A stretch of 46,447 nucleotides of DNA. It comes from Thiotrichaceae bacterium. GTDB taxonomy: Bacteria > Pseudomonadota > Gammaproteobacteria > Beggiatoales > Beggiatoaceae. The position numbers and the translations under genes are program-made. The stretch is taken from positions 1 through 46,447 of the forward strand of contig JAABRD010000041.1 of NCBI GenBank assembly GCA_011391085.1, in the 5' to 3' direction. This document shows positions 4,484-39,465 of this stretch, piece after piece. A model generated the notes under the pieces. It searched no databases. It saw only the letters and a list, made by a program, of their open reading frames with translations, and was not told the origin of the DNA. Within the stretch, counting starts at the first letter, position 1. The number at the start of each line of letters is the position of its first letter.

Positions 4484-4764
4484 GGACTTACGCAACCACT
4501 TTTGTAAGTCGTTGATTTGACACCCCCCCTATCCCCCCCCGCACGCGGCAATGCCATTAAGTTAAGGAACATTTCGGTGGAGTGGAGGCTTTAGCCGGTC
4601 GGCCGTAGGCATCACTCCTCACTCAAATTGCGGGGCGCCTACCGCTGGCCGGCTAAAGCCTCCACTCCACCGTACCCTAACTTAATGGCATTGCCCGCAC
4701 GCGGGGGGGAATCACTCCCTCCCCACGTGGGGGGAGGGTCGGGGTGGGGTGACTGCGTAAGTCC
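4484..4764. mobile_element. Composite/nested palindromic element (three concentric inverted-repeat pairs)
   Basis: Outer pair GGACTTACGC/GCGTAAGTCC (4484-4493/4755-4764). Middle pair GCACGCGGCAATGCCATTAAGTTAAGG/CCTAACTTAATGGCATTGCCCGCACGCGG (4541-/-4703). Inner family B variant GGAGTGGAGGCTTTAGCCGG/CCGGCTAAAGCCTCCACTCC (4579-4668). Confidence 0.7.
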
Positions 4765-5145
4765 TAACTTTGACAACTGTTGGGATGTGCAGATATGGCT
4801 TGCTAAAGTAGGATGGATAATGAAGGTAACAAAATGATTGACTGTCTATTGATCTTGGTTTATCTTGCCCATATACTCATCTTGTTGACCCAAGATGTCA
4901 GATTATGTGGTGTAAGTAAATTGAGGTAACTGCTGTGAAAATTATTTCTATTTTCTATTTTCAATAACCAATACGCGGGCGTAGGTTGCCATAATTCTTA
5001 TTGTGTTATAGTAGAAATAGTGCAAGTACGGGGGAATTTTACTATAATGTAGGACCAACTGAAAAGTCGGGTTTCCATCATCGCTATTTAGCAAAATGGT
5101 GGGCTACCTACCTAGACTGGCAGTTGTTTTATCGTTCAACCAATC

Positions 5146-5678
5146 ATGTCTATCAAGAAGGAGGTCATTATGATGACTATAAAATGGCAACAACCCAAAT
5201 CCGCTTTCCTATGGCAAAGCAGTTTTGTTTTTCCCTCTGCCGGTGGTGGAGGTGGCACTGATGAGGAAATAGTGACTTTAGAATACGATATTAGTCGTTA
5301 CGGTTCTGATTACTATTCTTTCACCCCTGCGCAAAGTGACCCTGAACGGTAGTGATGCAATCTGGGTGAAATGTCTGAACTCTGATTAGAATGATTTTCA
5401 GATGGACTCTGATTAGTCAAGCCTCCTTTCATAGCCCTCATTTAATCATCTCAATCAAAGTTCAAGACCGACGCGAAACCTCTCGATATTTCACCCACAT
5501 TGCATCACTACCCCCTGAACTATGTCGAGTTGCCTGTCAAAATGACTCCAGATGTAAAGCTTTCAGTTACGTCAAACCAGACGCAACATGGCCTGGTAGT
5601 CCTCCTGCTTGTTGGTTGAAAGAGGCAGTCCCACCAGCGGCAAGTAGTTCTTGCTGTGTGTCAGGAGTGAAAATGTAA
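5146..5678 (+). pseudogene. Small PAN/apple-domain protein gene interrupted by MITE insertion (MITE 5348-5512; TSD CCCTGAAC at 5340-5347 and 5513-5520)
   Basis: Removing the 165-bp MITE plus one TSD copy joins ...TPAQSDPE to LCRVACQNDSRCKAFSYVKPDATWPGSPPACWLKE... in frame (PAN-like Cys pattern). A strong RBS AAGGAGG lies 5 nt before ATG 5170. The upstream frame terminates at TAG, which lies inside the MITE TIR. Confidence 0.6.
5348..5512. mobile_element. MITE family A copy (single 81-bp core unit) inserted in coding sequence
   Basis: TIRs GGTAGTGATGCAATCTGGGTGA / TCACCCACATTGCATCACTACC. Exact 8-bp direct repeat CCCTGAAC on both flanks. Confidence 0.85.
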
Positions 5679-5784
5679 ATTTGTGTAGAATACGTCCCTC
5701 GTCACCCTTTCGCACTTCCAATGCCAATAGTGCGTGGGACGCACCCTACAATCCACATTCCCAAAATCAGGACTGATAGGACTG

Positions 5785-5940
5785 GAGATATAGTAATATT
5801 CGTTCAAATCTGTACGATTCCCGCCGGAGCGCAATAAGAATTATTGCGCTGTGCGCCCGCGTAGCGGCAGCGCGATACCGCGCAATAATTCTTATTGCGT
5901 TCCAGCGGAGGTGTACAAATTTATAGGAATATTACTATAA
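5785..5940. repeat. Palindromic repeat family C (TIR ..TATAGTAATATTC / GAATATTACTATA..) with GC-rich internal dyad
   Basis: Inverted termini at 5785-5802 and 5922-5940. Internal GCGCAATAAGAATTATTGCGC-type dyads. Related copies at 29845-29955 and a partial copy at 38207-38311. Confidence 0.6.
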
Positions 5941-6037
5941 TATTAAAGGAGTCCAAAGCGTGGCTTTGTATCGACAAAGCTACACTTTGGACACATGGAG
6001 ACTTTGTACAATCATTTCTAAACAGAAGTAAACTATT

Positions 6038-9000
6038 ATGACATTACCTACTTTCTTTCGTACCAGCGTAGGCGGAATAAGTTGTTTCCTGCTATTCGCC
6101 CAACTTACCTTTGCCGCTTCACCGCCACCCAATGACCATTTGAGTGAGGCGACGGCGATTCTCGGTTTGCCTTACACTTCCACACCTCAAAATGTCGCCG
6201 CGGCTACTTTGGAACCCAACGAATCTATACGAAGTTGTACTAGTACAGCCAGCAATGACAGTGTGTGGTATCAATACACACCTACCACAAACCAAGAAGT
6301 TGCCTTTAACACTTTCGGTTCCAATTATGACACCGTCTTATCGGTGTGGACTGGCACAACTCATCCGCTAGTCGAACTGGGTTGCAATGATGACACCAGT
6401 GGAAATTATCAGTCCTTCGTGCATTTATTTTTAAGCACAGGAACGACCTACTACATTAACATCGCCAGCTTTTCTGGTATGACTGATGAGAATAGTTCAC
6501 TCGTCTTAACTGTCAACCTTCTCCTGCCAGCGGACAATGACAATTTAGCCAACGCCATTCAGGTCGCGACTCTACCTTATACTTCCGCCAACCCGTACCT
6601 TTGGCAAAGCCAAACCCTGGAAACTAGCGAAACCCCTCCCAGTTGTGCCCTAAATGGATATGCGAGTGTGTGGTATCAATATACACCAACTATCAACCAA
6701 ACCGTTTCATTTGCCGCAGATGCGCCGGTATTATCGATTTGGAATGGCACCACGCATCCACTGACTGAAATCACCTGTAACAACAGCATGGCTTCGGGTT
6801 CCCCTTCTTTTCCCTTAGACTTGATAGCAGGCACCACCTATTATGTCAATCTGGGAATCCCAGATTCATCAGCAGGCACAAGGACGTTAAACATCAGTGA
6901 GTTGACGCAAGCTGGCAATGACGATTGGGCCAATGCCACCCTTATCACCACGCTTCCCTACGAAGGAAAGCAACAGGCGCAATGGGCCAGTGCCGAAGAA
7001 CAGGAAGTCACCTCGAGTTGTGAGTGGGAAGAACAGCAAAGTAGTGTTTGGTATCAATACACACCAACCACCGACCAGATGATAAGTTTAGAAGGGACGA
7101 CGTTGGAGGAGACGGTGTGGTCGTACCCTACTAAGGAGATGACAGTCTCTGTCTGGAATGGCACAGGTCACCCGTTGACTGAATTGAATTGCGAACGTTT
7201 TGGGAGTGGTGACAACACTCCTTTCCTGTTGAGGCTGACCGCCGGAACAACTTATTCTTTCAAGGTCACTACCCAGCCTTCAGGGGTTCTTGATTTTGTG
7301 TTATCGGTTTCCCCAGTTACGCCACCAACGAATGATAATTTGGCCACTGCCACCGTCATTCCTACCTTACCCTATAGCAATACCTCTCAAGAAGTTTTCG
7401 GAAGTACCAACGAAGACCAGGAACTGTCTAGTGGTTGCGGAGAAAGCGGCGGTAGTGTGTGGTATCAATATACACCGACTCAAAATCAAACCGTGGTGCT
7501 TAGTGGTCTGTCAGAGTGGTCTGTGACAGTATCGGTATGGACCGGCACCACTCACCCTTTGACAGAACTGACTTGCCTGGGTTCCGGGAATCTGTTGAAA
7601 CTCACCGCAGGTACCACTTACTTTATCAAAGTGAGTGTCCCGTCTAATCAGAAATCGTTGGTCTCCTTTGAAGCCACCGAGGTGACTCCACCTAGCAATG
7701 ATGATTTGGCCAATGCCACCGTCATTTCTACATTACCCTATAGCAATACCTCTCAAGAAGTTTTCGGAAGTACCAACGAAGACCAGGAACTGTCTAGTGG
7801 TTGCGGAGAAAGCGGCGGTAGTGTGTGGTATCAATATACACCGACTCAAAATCAAACCGTGGTGCTTAGTGGTCTGTCAGAGTGGTCTGTGACAGTATCG
7901 GTATGGACCGGCACCACTCACCCTTTGACAGAACTGACTTGCCTGGGTTCCGGGGTTCTGTTGAAACTCACCGCAGGTACCACTTACTTTATCAAAGTGA
8001 GTGTCCCGTCTAATCAGAAATCGTTGGTTTCCTTTGAAGCTACCGAGGTGACTCTCCCTAGCAATGATGATTTGGTCAATGCAACCGTCATTCCTACATT
8101 GCCTTATGGTCATTCTCAAAGTACCCAATGGGCGACGGCAGAACTGGGCGAAGTTAGCTATGAACAAGCAACCTCTGAAAGTTGTGGAGGAAGTTGGGGA
8201 TGGGCATACTTTGAAGACAGTGTTTGGTATCAATACACGCCAGACCATGACCAACTGGTGGAATTTGACACTTTGGGTTCTAGTTATAACACGGTTCTCT
8301 CTATTTGGACAGGCACTGCCCACCCACTGACGGCCTTGGTGTGTAATGATGACGAATATGGCGTCTTCCTTTCCCAAGCCAACTTGAAACTGACCGCGCA
8401 CACCACCTATTATATCAGGGTGAATAGTGGCGCGTCGTGGAATGGCAGTGACATCGGCGGTATGTTAAATTTCTACGCCCAGGAAGTCTTGCCACCTAGC
8501 AACGATAACTTGGCCCAAGCCATTTCTATCACGTCCTTGCCTTATATCCATCGGCAAAACACCCAAGGGGCTAGTTTGGAAACCGAGGAGATGACAGCCA
8601 GTTGTGCGAAGTCGGAGACGGGAATGAGTGTGTGGTACAAATACACGCCTACCACTTCTGAAACGGTGCGGCTAGATACACAAACTTCCAGTTACGACAC
8701 GGTGTTATCGGTGTGGACTGGCCAACCGTTGACCGAAATCGCTTGTCATGAGGATTTGAGTGCCACTGATTCACAATCTAAACTCATCGTGACTTTGACG
8801 GCTGGCACCACTTACTTGATGAATGTCAGTGGGACTCGAAATGATTACTATCTGCCTATTTCTTCTGGTAACTTGGTGTTAACCGTTACAGCCAATGACC
8901 TTGAGTTAACGTCCCTGGGTCTCGCCAACATGATAGATGCACTGGGAAACCCGGTGACCTCCTCCACAGAATTTCTGGGCGGCATGTCAGTCAATGGCAA

Positions 9001-9385
9001 TGCTTACCAAGTGGAGGTGGTGCAAAATCTCGCTGATGAAGTAGAGATTTGGGGTAAAATGACAGTGGACCCTAACCATGTTGGCCAAACTGCCGACGTG
9101 GTCGTGTATGCGAGTTATCAATCGTCCACGTTGGCTTCTGAAGAATATTTCTACATGGTCGATAACCGCTATTCCATTTATGTTTGGGACCAGAACCCAG
9201 CGAATTTAATGGCCCTGCAAACGGTTCGGTTAGCACCAGAACAATGGCAAGCCCTTTATCGCGGACGTTTCCAAGTGCCTGGCGTGTTAAACATCTTCTG
9301 GGGGTATCGTCTGGCAGATGGGACAGTGGTGACCAGTGGTCAAGGATTGCAGGTGATGATTCATCGGCAGGTGAGTCAGTATTAA
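6038..9385 (+). CDS. Secreted protein with 8 tandem PPC (bacterial pre-peptidase C-terminal)-like domains and a C-terminal ~110-aa domain shared with two other proteins in the window
   Basis: Signal peptide. ~120-aa modules repeat the motifs NDNLANA..LPY, SVWYQYTPT, DTVLSVWTG..HPL.EL.CNDD, AGTTYY. C-terminal tail ...VDPNHVGQTADVVVYA...IFWGYRLADGTVVTSG. Confidence 0.85.
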   Translation: MTLPTFFRTSVGGISCFLLFAQLTFAASPPPNDHLSEATAILGLPYTSTPQNVAAATLEPNESIRSCTSTASNDSVWYQYTPTTNQEVAFNTFGSNYDTVLSVWTGTTHPLVELGCNDDTSGNYQSFVHLFLSTGTTYYINIASFSGMTDENSSLVLTVNLLLPADNDNLANAIQVATLPYTSANPYLWQSQTLETSETPPSCALNGYASVWYQYTPTINQTVSFAADAPVLSIWNGTTHPLTEITCNNSMASGSPSFPLDLIAGTTYYVNLGIPDSSAGTRTLNISELTQAGNDDWANATLITTLPYEGKQQAQWASAEEQEVTSSCEWEEQQSSVWYQYTPTTDQMISLEGTTLEETVWSYPTKEMTVSVWNGTGHPLTELNCERFGSGDNTPFLLRLTAGTTYSFKVTTQPSGVLDFVLSVSPVTPPTNDNLATATVIPTLPYSNTSQEVFGSTNEDQELSSGCGESGGSVWYQYTPTQNQTVVLSGLSEWSVTVSVWTGTTHPLTELTCLGSGNLLKLTAGTTYFIKVSVPSNQKSLVSFEATEVTPPSNDDLANATVISTLPYSNTSQEVFGSTNEDQELSSGCGESGGSVWYQYTPTQNQTVVLSGLSEWSVTVSVWTGTTHPLTELTCLGSGVLLKLTAGTTYFIKVSVPSNQKSLVSFEATEVTLPSNDDLVNATVIPTLPYGHSQSTQWATAELGEVSYEQATSESCGGSWGWAYFEDSVWYQYTPDHDQLVEFDTLGSSYNTVLSIWTGTAHPLTALVCNDDEYGVFLSQANLKLTAHTTYYIRVNSGASWNGSDIGGMLNFYAQEVLPPSNDNLAQAISITSLPYIHRQNTQGASLETEEMTASCAKSETGMSVWYKYTPTTSETVRLDTQTSSYDTVLSVWTGQPLTEIACHEDLSATDSQSKLIVTLTAGTTYLMNVSGTRNDYYLPISSGNLVLTVTANDLELTSLGLANMIDALGNPVTSSTEFLGGMSVNGNAYQVEVVQNLADEVEIWGKMTVDPNHVGQTADVVVYASYQSSTLASEEYFYMVDNRYSIYVWDQNPANLMALQTVRLAPEQWQALYRGRFQVPGVLNIFWGYRLADGTVVTSGQGLQVMIHRQVSQY

Positions 9386-11383: not shown

Positions 11384-11575
11384 CCATTAAGTTAAGGAAT
11401 TGAGGTGACGAAACAATTAACATAGCGGTGGACTAGAGGCTTTAGCCGGTGAGGGGCATTGCGATTTCAATTATGTTCTGCCCCCCTCCGGCTAAAGCCT
11501 CTAGTCCACCTGTCGATTAATTTTAGGGGCTTTTTTTCTCAACTTAATGGCATTGCGGCTGAAGCCTCTAGTCCA
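11384..11575. mobile_element. Composite MITE family B (outer CCATTAAGTTAAGG/CTTAATGGCATTGC arms enclosing a GGACTAGAGGCTTTAGCCGG inverted pair at 11430-11507)
   Basis: Same architecture recurs at 32670-32860 and (as a variant) at 4541-4703. Lies between convergent genes 9935..11332 and 11612..12346. Confidence 0.75.
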
Positions 11576-11611: not shown

Positions 11612-12346
11612 TTACATAAAGACCTGTTCCAACCATTTTTTAAATCCTTTTATCTCCTCTGATTCCAAGTCTATCAAGGGAGATGGAAGTTGTGTCGATG
11701 GTAAAGGAGACCGCGACGCTTTAGGAAACAAATTAGCAAAAGACTGTCCCGGTGGGTTCTGCCAGGCCAACCAAGTATAAACCCCAGCCTTGGTTTGATG
11801 AAAGTCACTGAATAATTTTAACTCCTTGGGTAACTGATTGACACACTCGGTTGCATGTTCTAACAGTCTTTGTGGCTTCCCCTGACAAACCGCCGATTTA
11901 ATGAAGTCTTCTAACATGCCATCTCCTCTATGGTCAGGCATAATCCATAAACCGACTGGCGGGAGTCCACAATCATGTTGAAAAATATTTCCAACATAGG
12001 CTTGGTCAGGAGGAAGATTGATAATATAGTCCCTGTCCTGCTTTTGTAAAATATCTGTGACCGTTTTCCAACGTGCCGCAAACCCGCCATTGAGATTGGT
12101 ATAATCAGCATCAACCACAATGCCCAGTCGGTTGCGCGGATCGTCTCTAAGTCCCCTGAGTAAGACGGGCAATCTGCGAAGAACTCCCTTAATACCATCC
12201 TCATGCCCACCACACTCGGTTGGAGTTAACACCGGAATGTTAGGTTCGGGAAGTAACTGATTCAGCAAAATTTTGAAAAATTCCACATCGCGACCTCCTT
12301 CCACCAGCAGACGGACTTCTTTTTTGGGATTGTTTGTCTGTTTCAT
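11612..12346 (-). CDS. TOPRIM-like small protein (DUF4435/RloB-like); partner of upstream ABC ATPase; candidate antiphage effector
   Basis: N-terminal RLLVEGGRDVEFF (TOPRIM Glu) and GIVVDADYTN (DxD). The start ATG directly abuts the ATPase stop (TGAATG on the minus strand). Confidence 0.7.
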   Translation of the reverse strand: MKQTNNPKKEVRLLVEGGRDVEFFKILLNQLLPEPNIPVLTPTECGGHEDGIKGVLRRLPVLLRGLRDDPRNRLGIVVDADYTNLNGGFAARWKTVTDILQKQDRDYIINLPPDQAYVGNIFQHDCGLPPVGLWIMPDHRGDGMLEDFIKSAVCQGKPQRLLEHATECVNQLPKELKLFSDFHQTKAGVYTWLAWQNPPGQSFANLFPKASRSPLPSTQLPSPLIDLESEEIKGFKKWLEQVFM

Positions 12347-13510
12347 TCACCGTACCCCCAACTTATCTTGCGTGACTATTTGCAAGTCTTGTTTATCATA
12401 AATTGTAGCAATGACCTGACCCTTATTGGTAGTCCTGATACTACGGCCCAATCGGAAGAGAATAGTCTCCACTTCACTCTCTTCAGACACCCGCTGAAAA
12501 GCATCGATACAATCGTCGCTATGGGTGGTGGCAAAGACTTGAATGTTAAATTGCTTGGCCAGCGTGAAAATCAGTTCCCAAATGAGTGGCTGAATCTCGT
12601 AATGTAAACCATTTTCAAATTCGTCTATGAGTAGCAAACGACCTTTGGCTTTGATCAGATAGAGAAGCAATTGCAAAACTCGGCGCATACCATCTCCATA
12701 ACTCTTGAGTGGTTCAAGCTGTTCTTGCCCATTTCGTTTCACAAATGGTTTCCGTTCTCCTTCCAGATCACCGGTCACTTTCTTAAATGTCAGTCCTTCT
12801 ACACCGGGGTCAATCAGTTTGAGTCCGTCAATCACATATTGACCATACGTTAGATAAACGTCATCCCAAATATCGGCCAGTCGACGAGTCGGAATGAAAT
12901 CCACCGGCACGTAGTAATTGGAGAAATCCAAACCGATTTTTTGGAGTTCAAATTGACCGACTTTATAGTTGTCACGGTCATACGATTGAAAATCCAGCCA
13001 CACTTGCAAAACCCCTTGCAATTTGAGTCTGGAACGAATGGCTGGTAATTCTAATTGACGTTTTTTGCTACTGATTTTCAGGGCCTGGCGCACTCCTTCA
13101 AAAGAAGTCAATTCAGTTGGATCCAGTTCAGTTCTGACCCGGCGCCGAAAGAAGCCACCTTCCTGATCTTGTTCACTGTTTCCCAAAGTGAAATAGACCG
13201 ATTTGAGACTGACATATTCCGTTTGTTCTGAATTACCAATATAAATACTTTCCCCAGAGTCAGGAAAAGTACGATTTGTAAAGAAATTTTCAACTGCTAA
13301 AATCCCTTCACCAGTTTCGATTTCATCATGTTCTTTGAGAAGAGTTTCCAGCAAGAGGGGGGAACCTAAAGATTCATAAATTCGTAGGGCTTCCAAGACG
13401 CTACTTTTACCGGCATTGTTTTTGCCTACAATGAGATTGATTCGTCCTAGCTGTGGGATTTCGAGATCTTTTAGCAGACGAAAATTTTGGATTTTAAGGT
13501 TGGTTAGCAT
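12347..13510 (-). CDS. ABC/SMC-like ATPase (AAA_21/AAA_15 type); PARIS AriA-/AbiLi-/OLD-ATPase-like
   Basis: N-terminal LKIQNFRLLKDLEI..LIVGKNNAGKSSVLEAL (Walker A). Signature-like SYGDGMRR. Walker B LLLIDEFENGLH. H-loop ATTHS. Confidence 0.8.
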   Translation of the reverse strand: MLTNLKIQNFRLLKDLEIPQLGRINLIVGKNNAGKSSVLEALRIYESLGSPLLLETLLKEHDEIETGEGILAVENFFTNRTFPDSGESIYIGNSEQTEYVSLKSVYFTLGNSEQDQEGGFFRRRVRTELDPTELTSFEGVRQALKISSKKRQLELPAIRSRLKLQGVLQVWLDFQSYDRDNYKVGQFELQKIGLDFSNYYVPVDFIPTRRLADIWDDVYLTYGQYVIDGLKLIDPGVEGLTFKKVTGDLEGERKPFVKRNGQEQLEPLKSYGDGMRRVLQLLLYLIKAKGRLLLIDEFENGLHYEIQPLIWELIFTLAKQFNIQVFATTHSDDCIDAFQRVSEESEVETILFRLGRSIRTTNKGQVIATIYDKQDLQIVTQDKLGVR

Positions 13511-13522
13511 ATTGGAATTTTT

Positions 13523-14010
13523 AGTAGTGATGCAATCTGGGTGTACTGTCTGAACTCTGATTAGAATGATTTTCAGATGGACTCTGATTAGTCAAGCCTC
13601 CTTTCATGGCTATCATTTAATCATCTCAATCAGAACTCTGATTAGAATGATTTTCAGATGGACTCTGATTCGTCAAGCCTCCTTTCATAGCCCTCATTTA
13701 ATCATCTCAATCTGAACTCTGATTAGAATGATTTTCAGATGGACTCTGATTCGTCAAGCCTCCTTTCATAGCCTTCATTTAATCATCTCAATCTGAACTC
13801 TGATTAGAATGATTTTCAGATGGACTCTGATTAGTCAAGCCTCCTTTCATGGCTATCATTTAATCATCTCAATCTGAACTCTGATTAGAATGATTTTCAG
13901 ATGGACTCTGATTTGTCAAGCCTCCTTTCATAGCCCTCATTTAATCATCTCAATCAGAGTTCAAGACCAAGAGAAACCGCACGATATTTCACCCAGATTG
14001 CATCACTACC
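13523..14010. mobile_element. MITE family A copy with 5x tandem expansion of the 81-bp internal unit; 8-bp TSD GAATTTTT (13515-13522 / 14011-14018)
   Basis: TIRs (A)GTAGTGATGCAATCTGGGTG / CACCCAGATTGCATCACTACC. The internal unit GAACTCTGATTAGAATGATTTTCAGATGGACTCTGATTNGTCAAGCCTCCTTTCAT..CATCTCAATC repeats 5 times. Its left end lies 13 bp upstream of the ATPase start codon. Confidence 0.85.
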
Positions 14011-14156: not shown

Positions 14157-14319
14157 GGTAGTGATGCAATGTGGGTGATATGTTTACCCTCACCCCCGGC
14201 CCCTCTCCCAGAGGGCGTGGGGAGAAAACCACTGGTGCCGCCGTTCCCCCCACGCCCTCTGGGAGAGGGGCCGGGGGTGAGGGAAACTCTATGAATATCA
14301 CCCAGATTGCATTACTACC
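14157..14319. mobile_element. MITE family A copy (GC-rich palindromic core variant); TSD GAAATTCT
   Basis: TIRs GGTAGTGATGCAATGTGGGTGA / TCACCCAGATTGCATTACTACC. Core CCCTCACCCCCGGCCCCTCTCC....GGAGAGGGGCCGGGGGTGAGGG. Exact 8-bp flanking repeat at 14149-14156 and 14320-14327. A core fragment also occurs at 14057-14100. Confidence 0.85.
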
Positions 14320-20093: not shown

Positions 20094-20148
20094 GGTAGTG
20101 ATGCAATCTGGGTGATATGTTTACCCTCACCCAGATTACATCACTACC
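20094..20148. mobile_element. Minimal MITE family A copy (TIRs only, 55 bp)
   Basis: GGTAGTGATGCAATCTGGGTGATATGTTTACCCTCACCCAGATTACATCACTACC, located 43 bp upstream of the giant adhesin start codon. No TSD recognised. Confidence 0.7.
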
Positions 20149-27080: not shown

Positions 27081-27206
27081 TAGGGTGGATTAAGCGAAGC
27101 GTATCCACCTACGGGTCTTAATCCACCCTACTCAAATGGTGGATACGCTTCGCTTAATCCACCCTACTCAAATGGTGGATACGCTTCGCTTAATCCACCC
27201 TACTCA
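27081..27206. repeat. Palindrome plus 2x tandem 36-bp repeat (AATGGTGGATACGCTTCGCTTAATCCACCCTACTCA) immediately upstream of the vault-protein gene
   Basis: An inverted copy (TAGGGTGGATTAAGCGAAGCGTATCCACC) is followed by two direct 36-bp units. This creates a spurious in-frame N-terminal extension (MVDTLRLIHPTQ x2) of the following ORF. Confidence 0.8.
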
Positions 27207-27228
27207 CTATTATTCACCATTCACCAAT

Positions 27229-38185: not shown

Positions 38186-38206
38186 GATGAAATGACCACC
38201 CGCTGG

Positions 38207-38311
38207 GGCGCCATAAAAATGATTGCGTAATGCGCCGGTGCGACGTAGCGCCATAATTCTTATGGCGTTCCAGCGGAAATCGTGCGGAGTTAGAAGGAAT
38301 ATCGCTATAAT
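38207..38311. repeat. Partial copy of palindromic repeat family C (right half only)
   Basis: GCGCCATAATTCTTATGGCGTTCCAGCGGA...GGAATATCGCTATAAT aligns with 5838-5940. Confidence 0.55.
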
Positions 38312-39300: not shown

Positions 39301-39465
39301 GGTAGTGATGCAATGTGGGTTCTTTGTCTGAACTCTGATTAGAATGATTTTCAGATGGACTCTGATTAGTCATAGCCTCCTTTCATGGCCATCATTTAAT
39401 CATCTCAATCAGAGTTCAAGACTAAGAGAAACCGCACGATATTTCACCCAGATTGCATCACTACC
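39301..39465. mobile_element. MITE family A copy (81-bp core type); TSD GATTATTG
   Basis: TIRs GGTAGTGATGCAATGTGGGTTC / TCACCCAGATTGCATCACTACC. Exact 8-bp repeat at 39293-39300 and 39466-39473. Located between divergent genes. Confidence 0.85.

Follow-up and report, generated by a model that had tools for sequence, protein, structure and literature searches.

A short gene at positions 5146–5678 of a contig from a Thiotrichaceae bacterium of the family Beggiatoaceae (GenBank assembly GCA_011391085.1, contig JAABRD010000041.1, positions 1–46,447, the whole of which is called the window here) is split by a repeated sequence, which raises the question of what this sequence is, how it came to lie there, what the gene lost by it and whether the repeat can still move. 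The source of the contig is possibly a metagenome bin. The answer set out below, which we consider very probable, is that a gene of 111 codons, which codes for a single PAN/apple domain, was hit in codon 60 by a non-autonomous element derived from IS1.

The interrupting sequence is a MITE of family A with a length of 165 bp (5348–5512), which contains no transposase gene and only incidental open reading frames. One strand of it is predicted to form a long hairpin (−34.7 kcal/mol, z = −7.3). Its left terminal inverted repeat, GGTAGTGATGCAATCTGGGTGAAAT (5348–5372, plus strand), starts with the pattern GGnnnTG and is matched at 24 of 25 positions by the right one (5488–5512, minus strand); over 28 nt, the inverted ends are still 93% complementary. 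The element is bordered on both sides by the octamer CCCTGAAC, present as a left copy at 5340–5347 and a right copy at 5513–5520 (neither the MITEs nor the duplications are assigned a strand). This duplication is exact at 8 bp, whereas lengths of 6, 7, 9, 10 or 11 bp give mismatches. The preliminary description had placed a 165-bp MITE with an exact 8-bp target-site duplication at this position, and re-reading of the coordinates and of both copies gave the same result. The occupied-site junctions read CCCTGAAC/GGTAGTGATG on the left and CATCACTACC/CCCTGAACTATG on the right, and 173 bp were added in total by the insertion.

Deleting positions 5348–5520 in silico produced the empty-site junction GCGCAAAGTGACCCTGAACTATGTCGAGTTGCC and a single open frame running from 5146 to the TAA codon at 5676–5678 (119 aa). 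The earlier claim that excision restores one 119-aa ORF thus stands for the uninterrupted frame, but probably not for the length of the protein. The claimed ribosome-binding site AAGGAGG is indeed present (5158–5164, plus strand), and it lies inside the 119-aa frame, 5 nt before an ATG at 5170. Because of this position and of the public annotation of the truncated half, which is on record once as a 60-aa protein starting from the same codon (P0076, MMTIKW...SDPER), the true start is most likely the ATG at 5170, and the restored protein would comprise 111 rather than 119 aa. Counted from this start, the upstream half of the gene (5170–5347, plus strand) contains codons 1–59 and the first base of codon L60, whereas the downstream half (5521–5678, plus strand) extends from the remainder of codon L60 to M111 and the TAA codon and contains all six cysteines of the domain. 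Codon L60 itself is split, with the left duplicate ending on the C of this codon and the TA standing behind the right duplicate. Both halves of the restored ORF are without further lesions.

In the present-day sequence, the upstream frame ends with ...GAC CCT GAA CGG TAG. The stop codon TAG (5350–5352) falls inside the left terminus of the MITE, whose GGTAG places it two codons beyond the junction, just as had been proposed from the first reading. The ORF that remains (5170–5352) codes for a product of 60 aa ending with ...SDPER and lacking any domain cysteine. The insertion point falls at the N-terminus of the central helix, upstream of all six cysteines, and therefore the 60-aa stub cannot form a PAN domain. 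The helix, the remaining strands and the six cysteines remain downstream and lack their own start site. Because the stub has no cysteines and the downstream half has no start site, we infer that the PAN gene was inactivated by the insertion.

The N-terminus of the restored protein (MMTIKWQQPKSAFLWQSSFVFPSAGGGGG) shows no obvious signal peptide or clear hydrophobic signal sequence, which is present in the homologues P0001 and P0002. The gene was perhaps dispensable or already a degenerate remnant before the MITE arrived, which would account for its tolerance of the insertion. A reading of the ORF as the tail of a larger peptidase-PAN gene is not supported, since no homology upstream of the ORF was detected when the closest homologue (620 aa) served as the query in tblastn. 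A scan of positions 4900–6100 for promoters and terminators yielded counts that were not above those of shuffled sequences.

The restored ORF is predicted to encode a genuine PAN/apple domain. It matched the Pfam profile PAN_4 (PF14295) with a score of 57.1 bits at a cut-off of 27 bits, with the alignment covering profile positions 3–51 of 51 and residues 43–93 and crossing the junction at residue 59/60. The downstream half alone reached 43.7 bits over profile positions 16–51, and the upstream half alone gave no match to Pfam. At the junction, the excision re-forms a DPELC motif that is conserved in the homologues. When 1.84 billion representative proteins were searched exhaustively, 3214 homologues were obtained at E ≤ 0.001, nearly all of them aligning to residues ~36–110, and in most of them, the aligned region is one of several tandem modules. 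The homologues continue without gaps across the junction (VxxEYDxNRYGSDYxxFxLxxADPELCRxAC...CWLK...CCVSGVK), with D57, P58, L60 and C61 being invariant in an alignment of six sequences and C61, C65, C71, C90 and C105 being invariant among 43 homologues. Excision followed by a homology search, which had been suggested as a check on the restored ORF, thus recovered homologues that are continuous through the site of insertion.

The predicted structure agrees with this assignment. An AlphaFold model of the restored protein based on the 43-sequence alignment reached a mean pLDDT of 86.7, with values >90 for residues 34–110, and showed a secondary structure of the order E-E-H-E-E-E; the model obtained from the six-sequence alignment was unusable (pLDDT 39). 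Searching the PDB with Foldseek placed the apple domains of plasma kallikrein and factor XI at the top (probability 1.00, rmsd 1.8–1.9 Å over 78 columns), followed by PAN modules of Sarcocystis and Eimeria, plasminogen and the N-domains of HGF, and the first 37 matches were all PAN/apple-type or related domains. A search of the PDB by sequence with the restored protein likewise retrieved the apple domains of factor XI (E = 0.001). The protein would therefore share the fold of the kallikrein and factor XI apple domains, as far as the predicted model goes, and the PAN-like domain with a C-terminal cysteine pattern that had been noticed at the outset is confirmed by the profile match, the invariant cysteines and the modelled fold.

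Among bacterial PAN_4 proteins, a PAN domain-containing protein of Archangium violaceum (P0002), for example, shares a module of ~75 residues with 55% identity (EYDxxRYGSDY...DPELCRxAC...C.A.TYVKP...CWLK...CCVSGVK). The PAN_4 homologues mostly contain two to seven tandem modules, often joined to other secreted domains, whereas the gene studied here would code for a lone module in a protein of 111 aa without a clear signal peptide. Just 3' of the PAN gene lies a gene for a secreted repeat protein of 1115 aa (6038–9385, plus strand) that matches the model GBD_T9SS_assoc. A domain in the C-terminal part of this protein recurs at the N-terminus of P0005 (38% identity, E = 3e-8), which is the closest PAN homologue and carries a zinc-protease motif (HEFGHAIGFQHEH) followed by two PAN modules. 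Because P0005 combines the shared domain with two PAN modules, PAN modules appear to be linked to the class of secreted proteins to which the 1115-aa neighbour belongs.

The MITE within the PAN gene is one of many repeats with the same ends. The terminus occurs 14 times in the 46-kb window at ≤3 mismatches, compared to 0 occurrences in 100 shuffled sequences, and besides the element at 5348–5512 there are at least nine further copies or ends with MITE termini. A second family-A copy of 165 bp (39301–39465) is 90% identical to the one in the PAN gene and is flanked by the exact duplication GATTATTG. A longer family-A copy of 488 bp (13523–14010) has the exact duplication GAATTTTT and a core consisting of 5.0 repeats of an 81-bp unit. 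Two copies with a GC-rich palindromic core, of 163 bp (14157–14319) and 154 bp (31680–31833), carry the exact duplications GAAATTCT and TATCAGGT, respectively, while a third one of 159 bp (36262–36420) has flanks that agree at only 4 of 8 positions. A copy of 118 bp with the same termini and a distinct core (751–868) is flanked by AAAAATTT and AAAAATCT, which agree at 7 of 8 positions. The smallest element, with 55 bp (20094–20148), consists of two termini placed back to back, 8 nt apart, and shows no duplication (1 of 8 positions); it may have arisen by deletion or by recombination. In addition, there are a partial copy with a GC-rich palindromic core that has an intact right terminus and has lost the left one (29994–30120) and a solo end (606–627), whose flanks are not scorable in either case.

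Exact 8-bp duplications are therefore present at five of the eight complete copies (CCCTGAAC, GAATTTTT, GAAATTCT, TATCAGGT and GATTATTG), a sixth is matched at 7 of 8 positions, and the remaining two have lost them. Because an exact match of two octamers is expected by chance at only 1.5e-5 per copy, the 8-bp footprint characterizes the family as a whole. The footprint originally read from the PAN-gene site, an 8-bp target-site duplication and terminal inverted repeats beginning with (G)GTAGTG, consequently applies to the family as well. The copies have only the ~25-bp termini in common and contain at least three unrelated cores, namely the 81-bp unit, the GC-rich palindrome and the core of the 118-bp copy. 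The core can expand, because the copies at 5348–5512 and 39301–39465 hold a single 81-bp unit, compared to the 5.0 units in the copy at 13523–14010. These units form a minisatellite at 13549–13955 with 95% identity between its repeats. Within the window, the insertion into the PAN gene is the sole genic one; every remaining copy is intergenic and abuts gene ends. The family consists of short, dispersed elements without a transposase that have inverted ends and target-site duplications of constant length, as is characteristic of MITEs. Because the family-A copies diverge from each other by 5–10%, the family does not represent a very young burst.

Some further features of the window were recorded. 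The listed GTG start of an ORF for a eukaryotic-type (alpha) carbonic anhydrase (31797–32654, plus strand) is located inside the MITE copy at 31680–31833, for which reason its true start is probably further downstream. An ORF of 901 aa (27136–29841, plus strand) resembles the Major Vault Protein and shows the complete architecture of the eukaryotic MVP, with four stretches of Vault repeats, Vault_2, Vault_3, Vault_4 and the MVP shoulder (E values down to 5.6e-69); at 90% identity, it has no cluster partner in the protein collection. An adjacent gene pair at 11612–13510 (minus strand) codes for an AAA_15/AAA_21 ATPase of 387 aa and a DUF3226 protein of 244 aa, an arrangement that resembles two-gene defence-type modules. 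Other dispersed or palindromic repeats are present at 5789–5941 and 38199–38311, as well as at 4568–4673 together with 904–932, 11419–11450 and 32714–32796. Within the first pair, GCGCAATAAGAATTATTGCGC...GCGCAATAATTCTTATTGCG at ~5828–5900 is roughly 70% similar to the copy near 38200–38311. These repeats flanking the PAN gene belong to families distinct from the IS1-type MITE.

Outside the window, the exact terminus pattern was detected in species-representative genomes, the matches listed including a Thiomargarita sp. MAG (at least 11 stretches), Ca. Thiomargarita nelsonii THI036 and a Ca. Parabeggiatoa sp. A search of the PLSDB plasmids with the MITE in distant mode gave no match. For the RNase R encoded in the window, one short metagenome contig from JGI carries a protein with 96% identity, and the closest proteins of named organisms are those of Ca. 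Parabeggiatoa and Beggiatoa (66–67%), that of Thiomargarita reaching 59%. A cyanobacterial source, at first suggested by the GC-rich palindromic cores of the repeats, was rejected on the basis of these RNase R similarities and of the genomes that carry the terminus pattern, both of which place the contig in the Beggiatoaceae.

No transposase was found on the 46-kb contig. Judged from sequence comparisons, the MITE family belongs to IS1 by its ends, its 8-bp footprint and the existence of ~800-bp elements with matching ends that encode IS1 transposases. ISfinder describes IS1 elements as being 740–1180 bp long, with direct repeats of 8–9 bp, ends of the type GGnnnTG and DDE chemistry (tabulated in PMC10425158), and both the GGTAGTG ends and the 8-bp repeats of the MITEs fit this description, as does the size of the ~800-bp elements. 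The only element found with termini matching the MITE pattern is an 802-bp sequence of Ca. Thiomargarita nelsonii (L011:347-1148), in which one terminus matches exactly and the other one with 1 mismatch in 22; this element is frameshifted and decayed and comes from another genus. Its product, bridged across the frameshifts, comprises 236 aa and scored 175.4 bits with the NCBIfam IS1 transposase model NF033558, the equivalog cut-off of which is 100 bits. More than 5000 homologues of this transposase with lengths of ~235–240 aa are annotated as IS1 family and carry the Pfam domain DDE_Tnp_IS1, including proteins from Beggiatoa sp. PS and many cyanobacteria. The best intact homologue (L014:123-824, 76% identity) is a 233-aa IS1 transposase encoded inside a 798-bp element (L014:56-853), whose inverted ends GGTAGTCCTGAAATGTGGGTGA agree with the MITE ends at 19 of 22 positions and which lies between the two copies of its own exact duplication of 8 bp, CCTTTATT.

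The MITEs thus resemble IS1 elements of the single-ORF type common in cyanobacteria and Beggiatoaceae in their GGnnnTG ends, their inverted repeats of ~25 bp and their 8-bp duplications. They differ from these full-length partners, which are ~800 bp long and code for an IS1 transposase with a zinc-ribbon N-terminus, in sharing only the ~25-bp termini, while the MITE cores are unrelated to the transposase gene. A further contig (L015:290-1311, ENA ERZ27251186) contains an intact IS1-family element between outer MITE-like termini GGTAGTGCTGCAATGTGAGTGA at 290 (plus strand) and 1311 (minus strand), with an additional terminus at 120, an arrangement that points to nested insertions of related elements.

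Duplications of 8 bp are made by several IS families, and the likeness to the IS1 ends might accordingly be a coincidence and the parent belong to IS1595, ISL3, IS256, IS6 or IS66. The transposases of IS1 and IS1595 moreover have the N-terminal zinc domain NF050000 in common. We nevertheless regard such a parent as very unlikely, because the score of the L011 product with the IS1 equivalog is set against scores far below the respective cut-offs with the other models (ISL3, 26 bits, cut-off 180; IS1249, 21.6 bits, cut-off 300; an IS256 variant, 21.6 bits, cut-off 150), its homologues are IS1 by annotation and domain content, and intact IS1 relatives with near-identical ends make 8-bp duplications, too. 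The insertion might also have arisen only in the assembly, if a repeat-induced misjoin had put a MITE copy into a gene that is intact in the real genome. The family does seem to break short-read assemblies: the Logan contig L018 (SRR29699977) with a lysA gene identical to that of the window is 1637 bp long, and because this is close to the distance between the two MITEs flanking lysA (30120–31680), it suggests that the MITE family fragments assemblies. Run SRR29699977 may come from the source sample itself or from one closely related to it. A misjoin, however, does not make an exact 8-bp duplication of a unique target on both sides of a repeat, nor does it keep the unique flanks collinear, with their reading frames related to each other as after a real insertion; with both ends of the MITE at 5348–5512 being complete as well, an artefact is extremely improbable.

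A different kind of alternative accepts the interruption as real but takes it to be functional or reversible, whether as an intron-like sequence, by programmed excision or as a switch operated by recombination between the 8-bp repeats in a polyploid cell. The genomes of Thiomargarita contain many introns, including a group I intron in dsrA that harbours a MITE (PMC4853749), the carriers of the terminus pattern and of close homologues of the IS1 transposase are giant sulfur bacteria, and the two halves of the PAN gene have not acquired additional lesions. Yet a scan of the whole window against Rfam at gathering thresholds detected one tRNA only and no group I or group II intron family, the MITE shows the hallmarks of DDE transposition with its remaining copies in the window being intergenic, and an intact allele was not found in protein collections, metagenome contigs or exact-sequence look-ups. 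We therefore consider a functional interruption to be exceedingly unlikely. Very improbable, too, is a more specific version, in which interrupted and intact alleles coexist among the genome copies of a polyploid giant sulfur bacterium and the PAN gene is regenerated by exact removal of the MITE from between the 8-bp repeats. If this were true, an abundant IS1-type MITE family would represent a reversible within-cell source of variation by switching genes on and off.

An insertion by IS1-type transposition remains the preferred reading, and its course can be outlined as follows. An IS1-family DDE transposase produced elsewhere in the genome would have bound the ~25-bp ends of the MITE in trans and linked them to a target whose two strands were cut 8 bp apart, and the repair of this staggered cut would have led to the duplication of CCCTGAAC. 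Past mobility of the MITE family is well supported by the 8-bp footprints. The statement in the preliminary description that the family is, or recently was, mobile holds in this respect, but not for present activity, given that the contig contains no transposase and no empty allele was found. The insertion into the PAN gene would be recent enough for the duplication to have stayed exact and the halves to have stayed free of lesions, although this dates it only weakly, with just 333 coding bases available and copies that are 5–10% apart.

The searches for an empty allele covered several collections. A word-indexed protein search yielded only two homologues with 53–55% identity and no intact orthologue, and the best homologue in the exhaustive search of representative proteins showed 58% identity, again without an intact orthologue. 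A scan of metagenomes retrieved only relatives with 39–41% identity and no empty allele, and exact look-ups of the restored proteins in versions of 111, 119 and 110 aa as well as of a chimeric ORF of 95 aa returned no record. Exact look-ups of the 1115-aa neighbour and of the 60-aa stub, made to trace the contig, gave no record either.

MITEs of a giant sulfur bacterium have been described before by Flood et al. (2016; PMC4853749), who reported one within the hupL gene of Ca. Thiomargarita nelsonii Bud S10, with a 10-bp direct and a 19-bp inverted repeat, and a second one within the dsrA intron, and no parent IS family was found for either of them. Like the hupL MITE, the element studied here is short, abundant and non-coding, has direct and inverted repeats and interrupts a protein gene. 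The family differs from it in its 8-bp duplications, its GGTAGTG ends and its IS1 parent. We rejected the hupL MITE as a member of the same family, because the ends of the published sequence are unrelated to those found here and its direct repeat measures 10 bp. The terminus GGTAGTGATGCAAT is also absent from the supplements of PMC4853749 and from all full texts searched. Because the hupL ends are unrelated and the terminus does not occur in these texts, the MITE family is a previously undescribed one; its kind is well known, and IS1 can be identified as its parent.

As an event, the insertion is ordinary for repeat-rich genomes and involves no new mechanism. What it provides is a clean insertion footprint, consisting of the 8-bp duplication and the GGTAGTG ends, for an abundant repeat family of the Beggiatoaceae that is now tied to an IS1 parent. 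This is of modest practical use for annotating pseudogenes and repeat-induced assembly breaks in fragmented genomes. The site in the PAN gene, finally, offers a specific place at which the heterogeneity of alleles within populations or within single cells of these bacteria can be tested.
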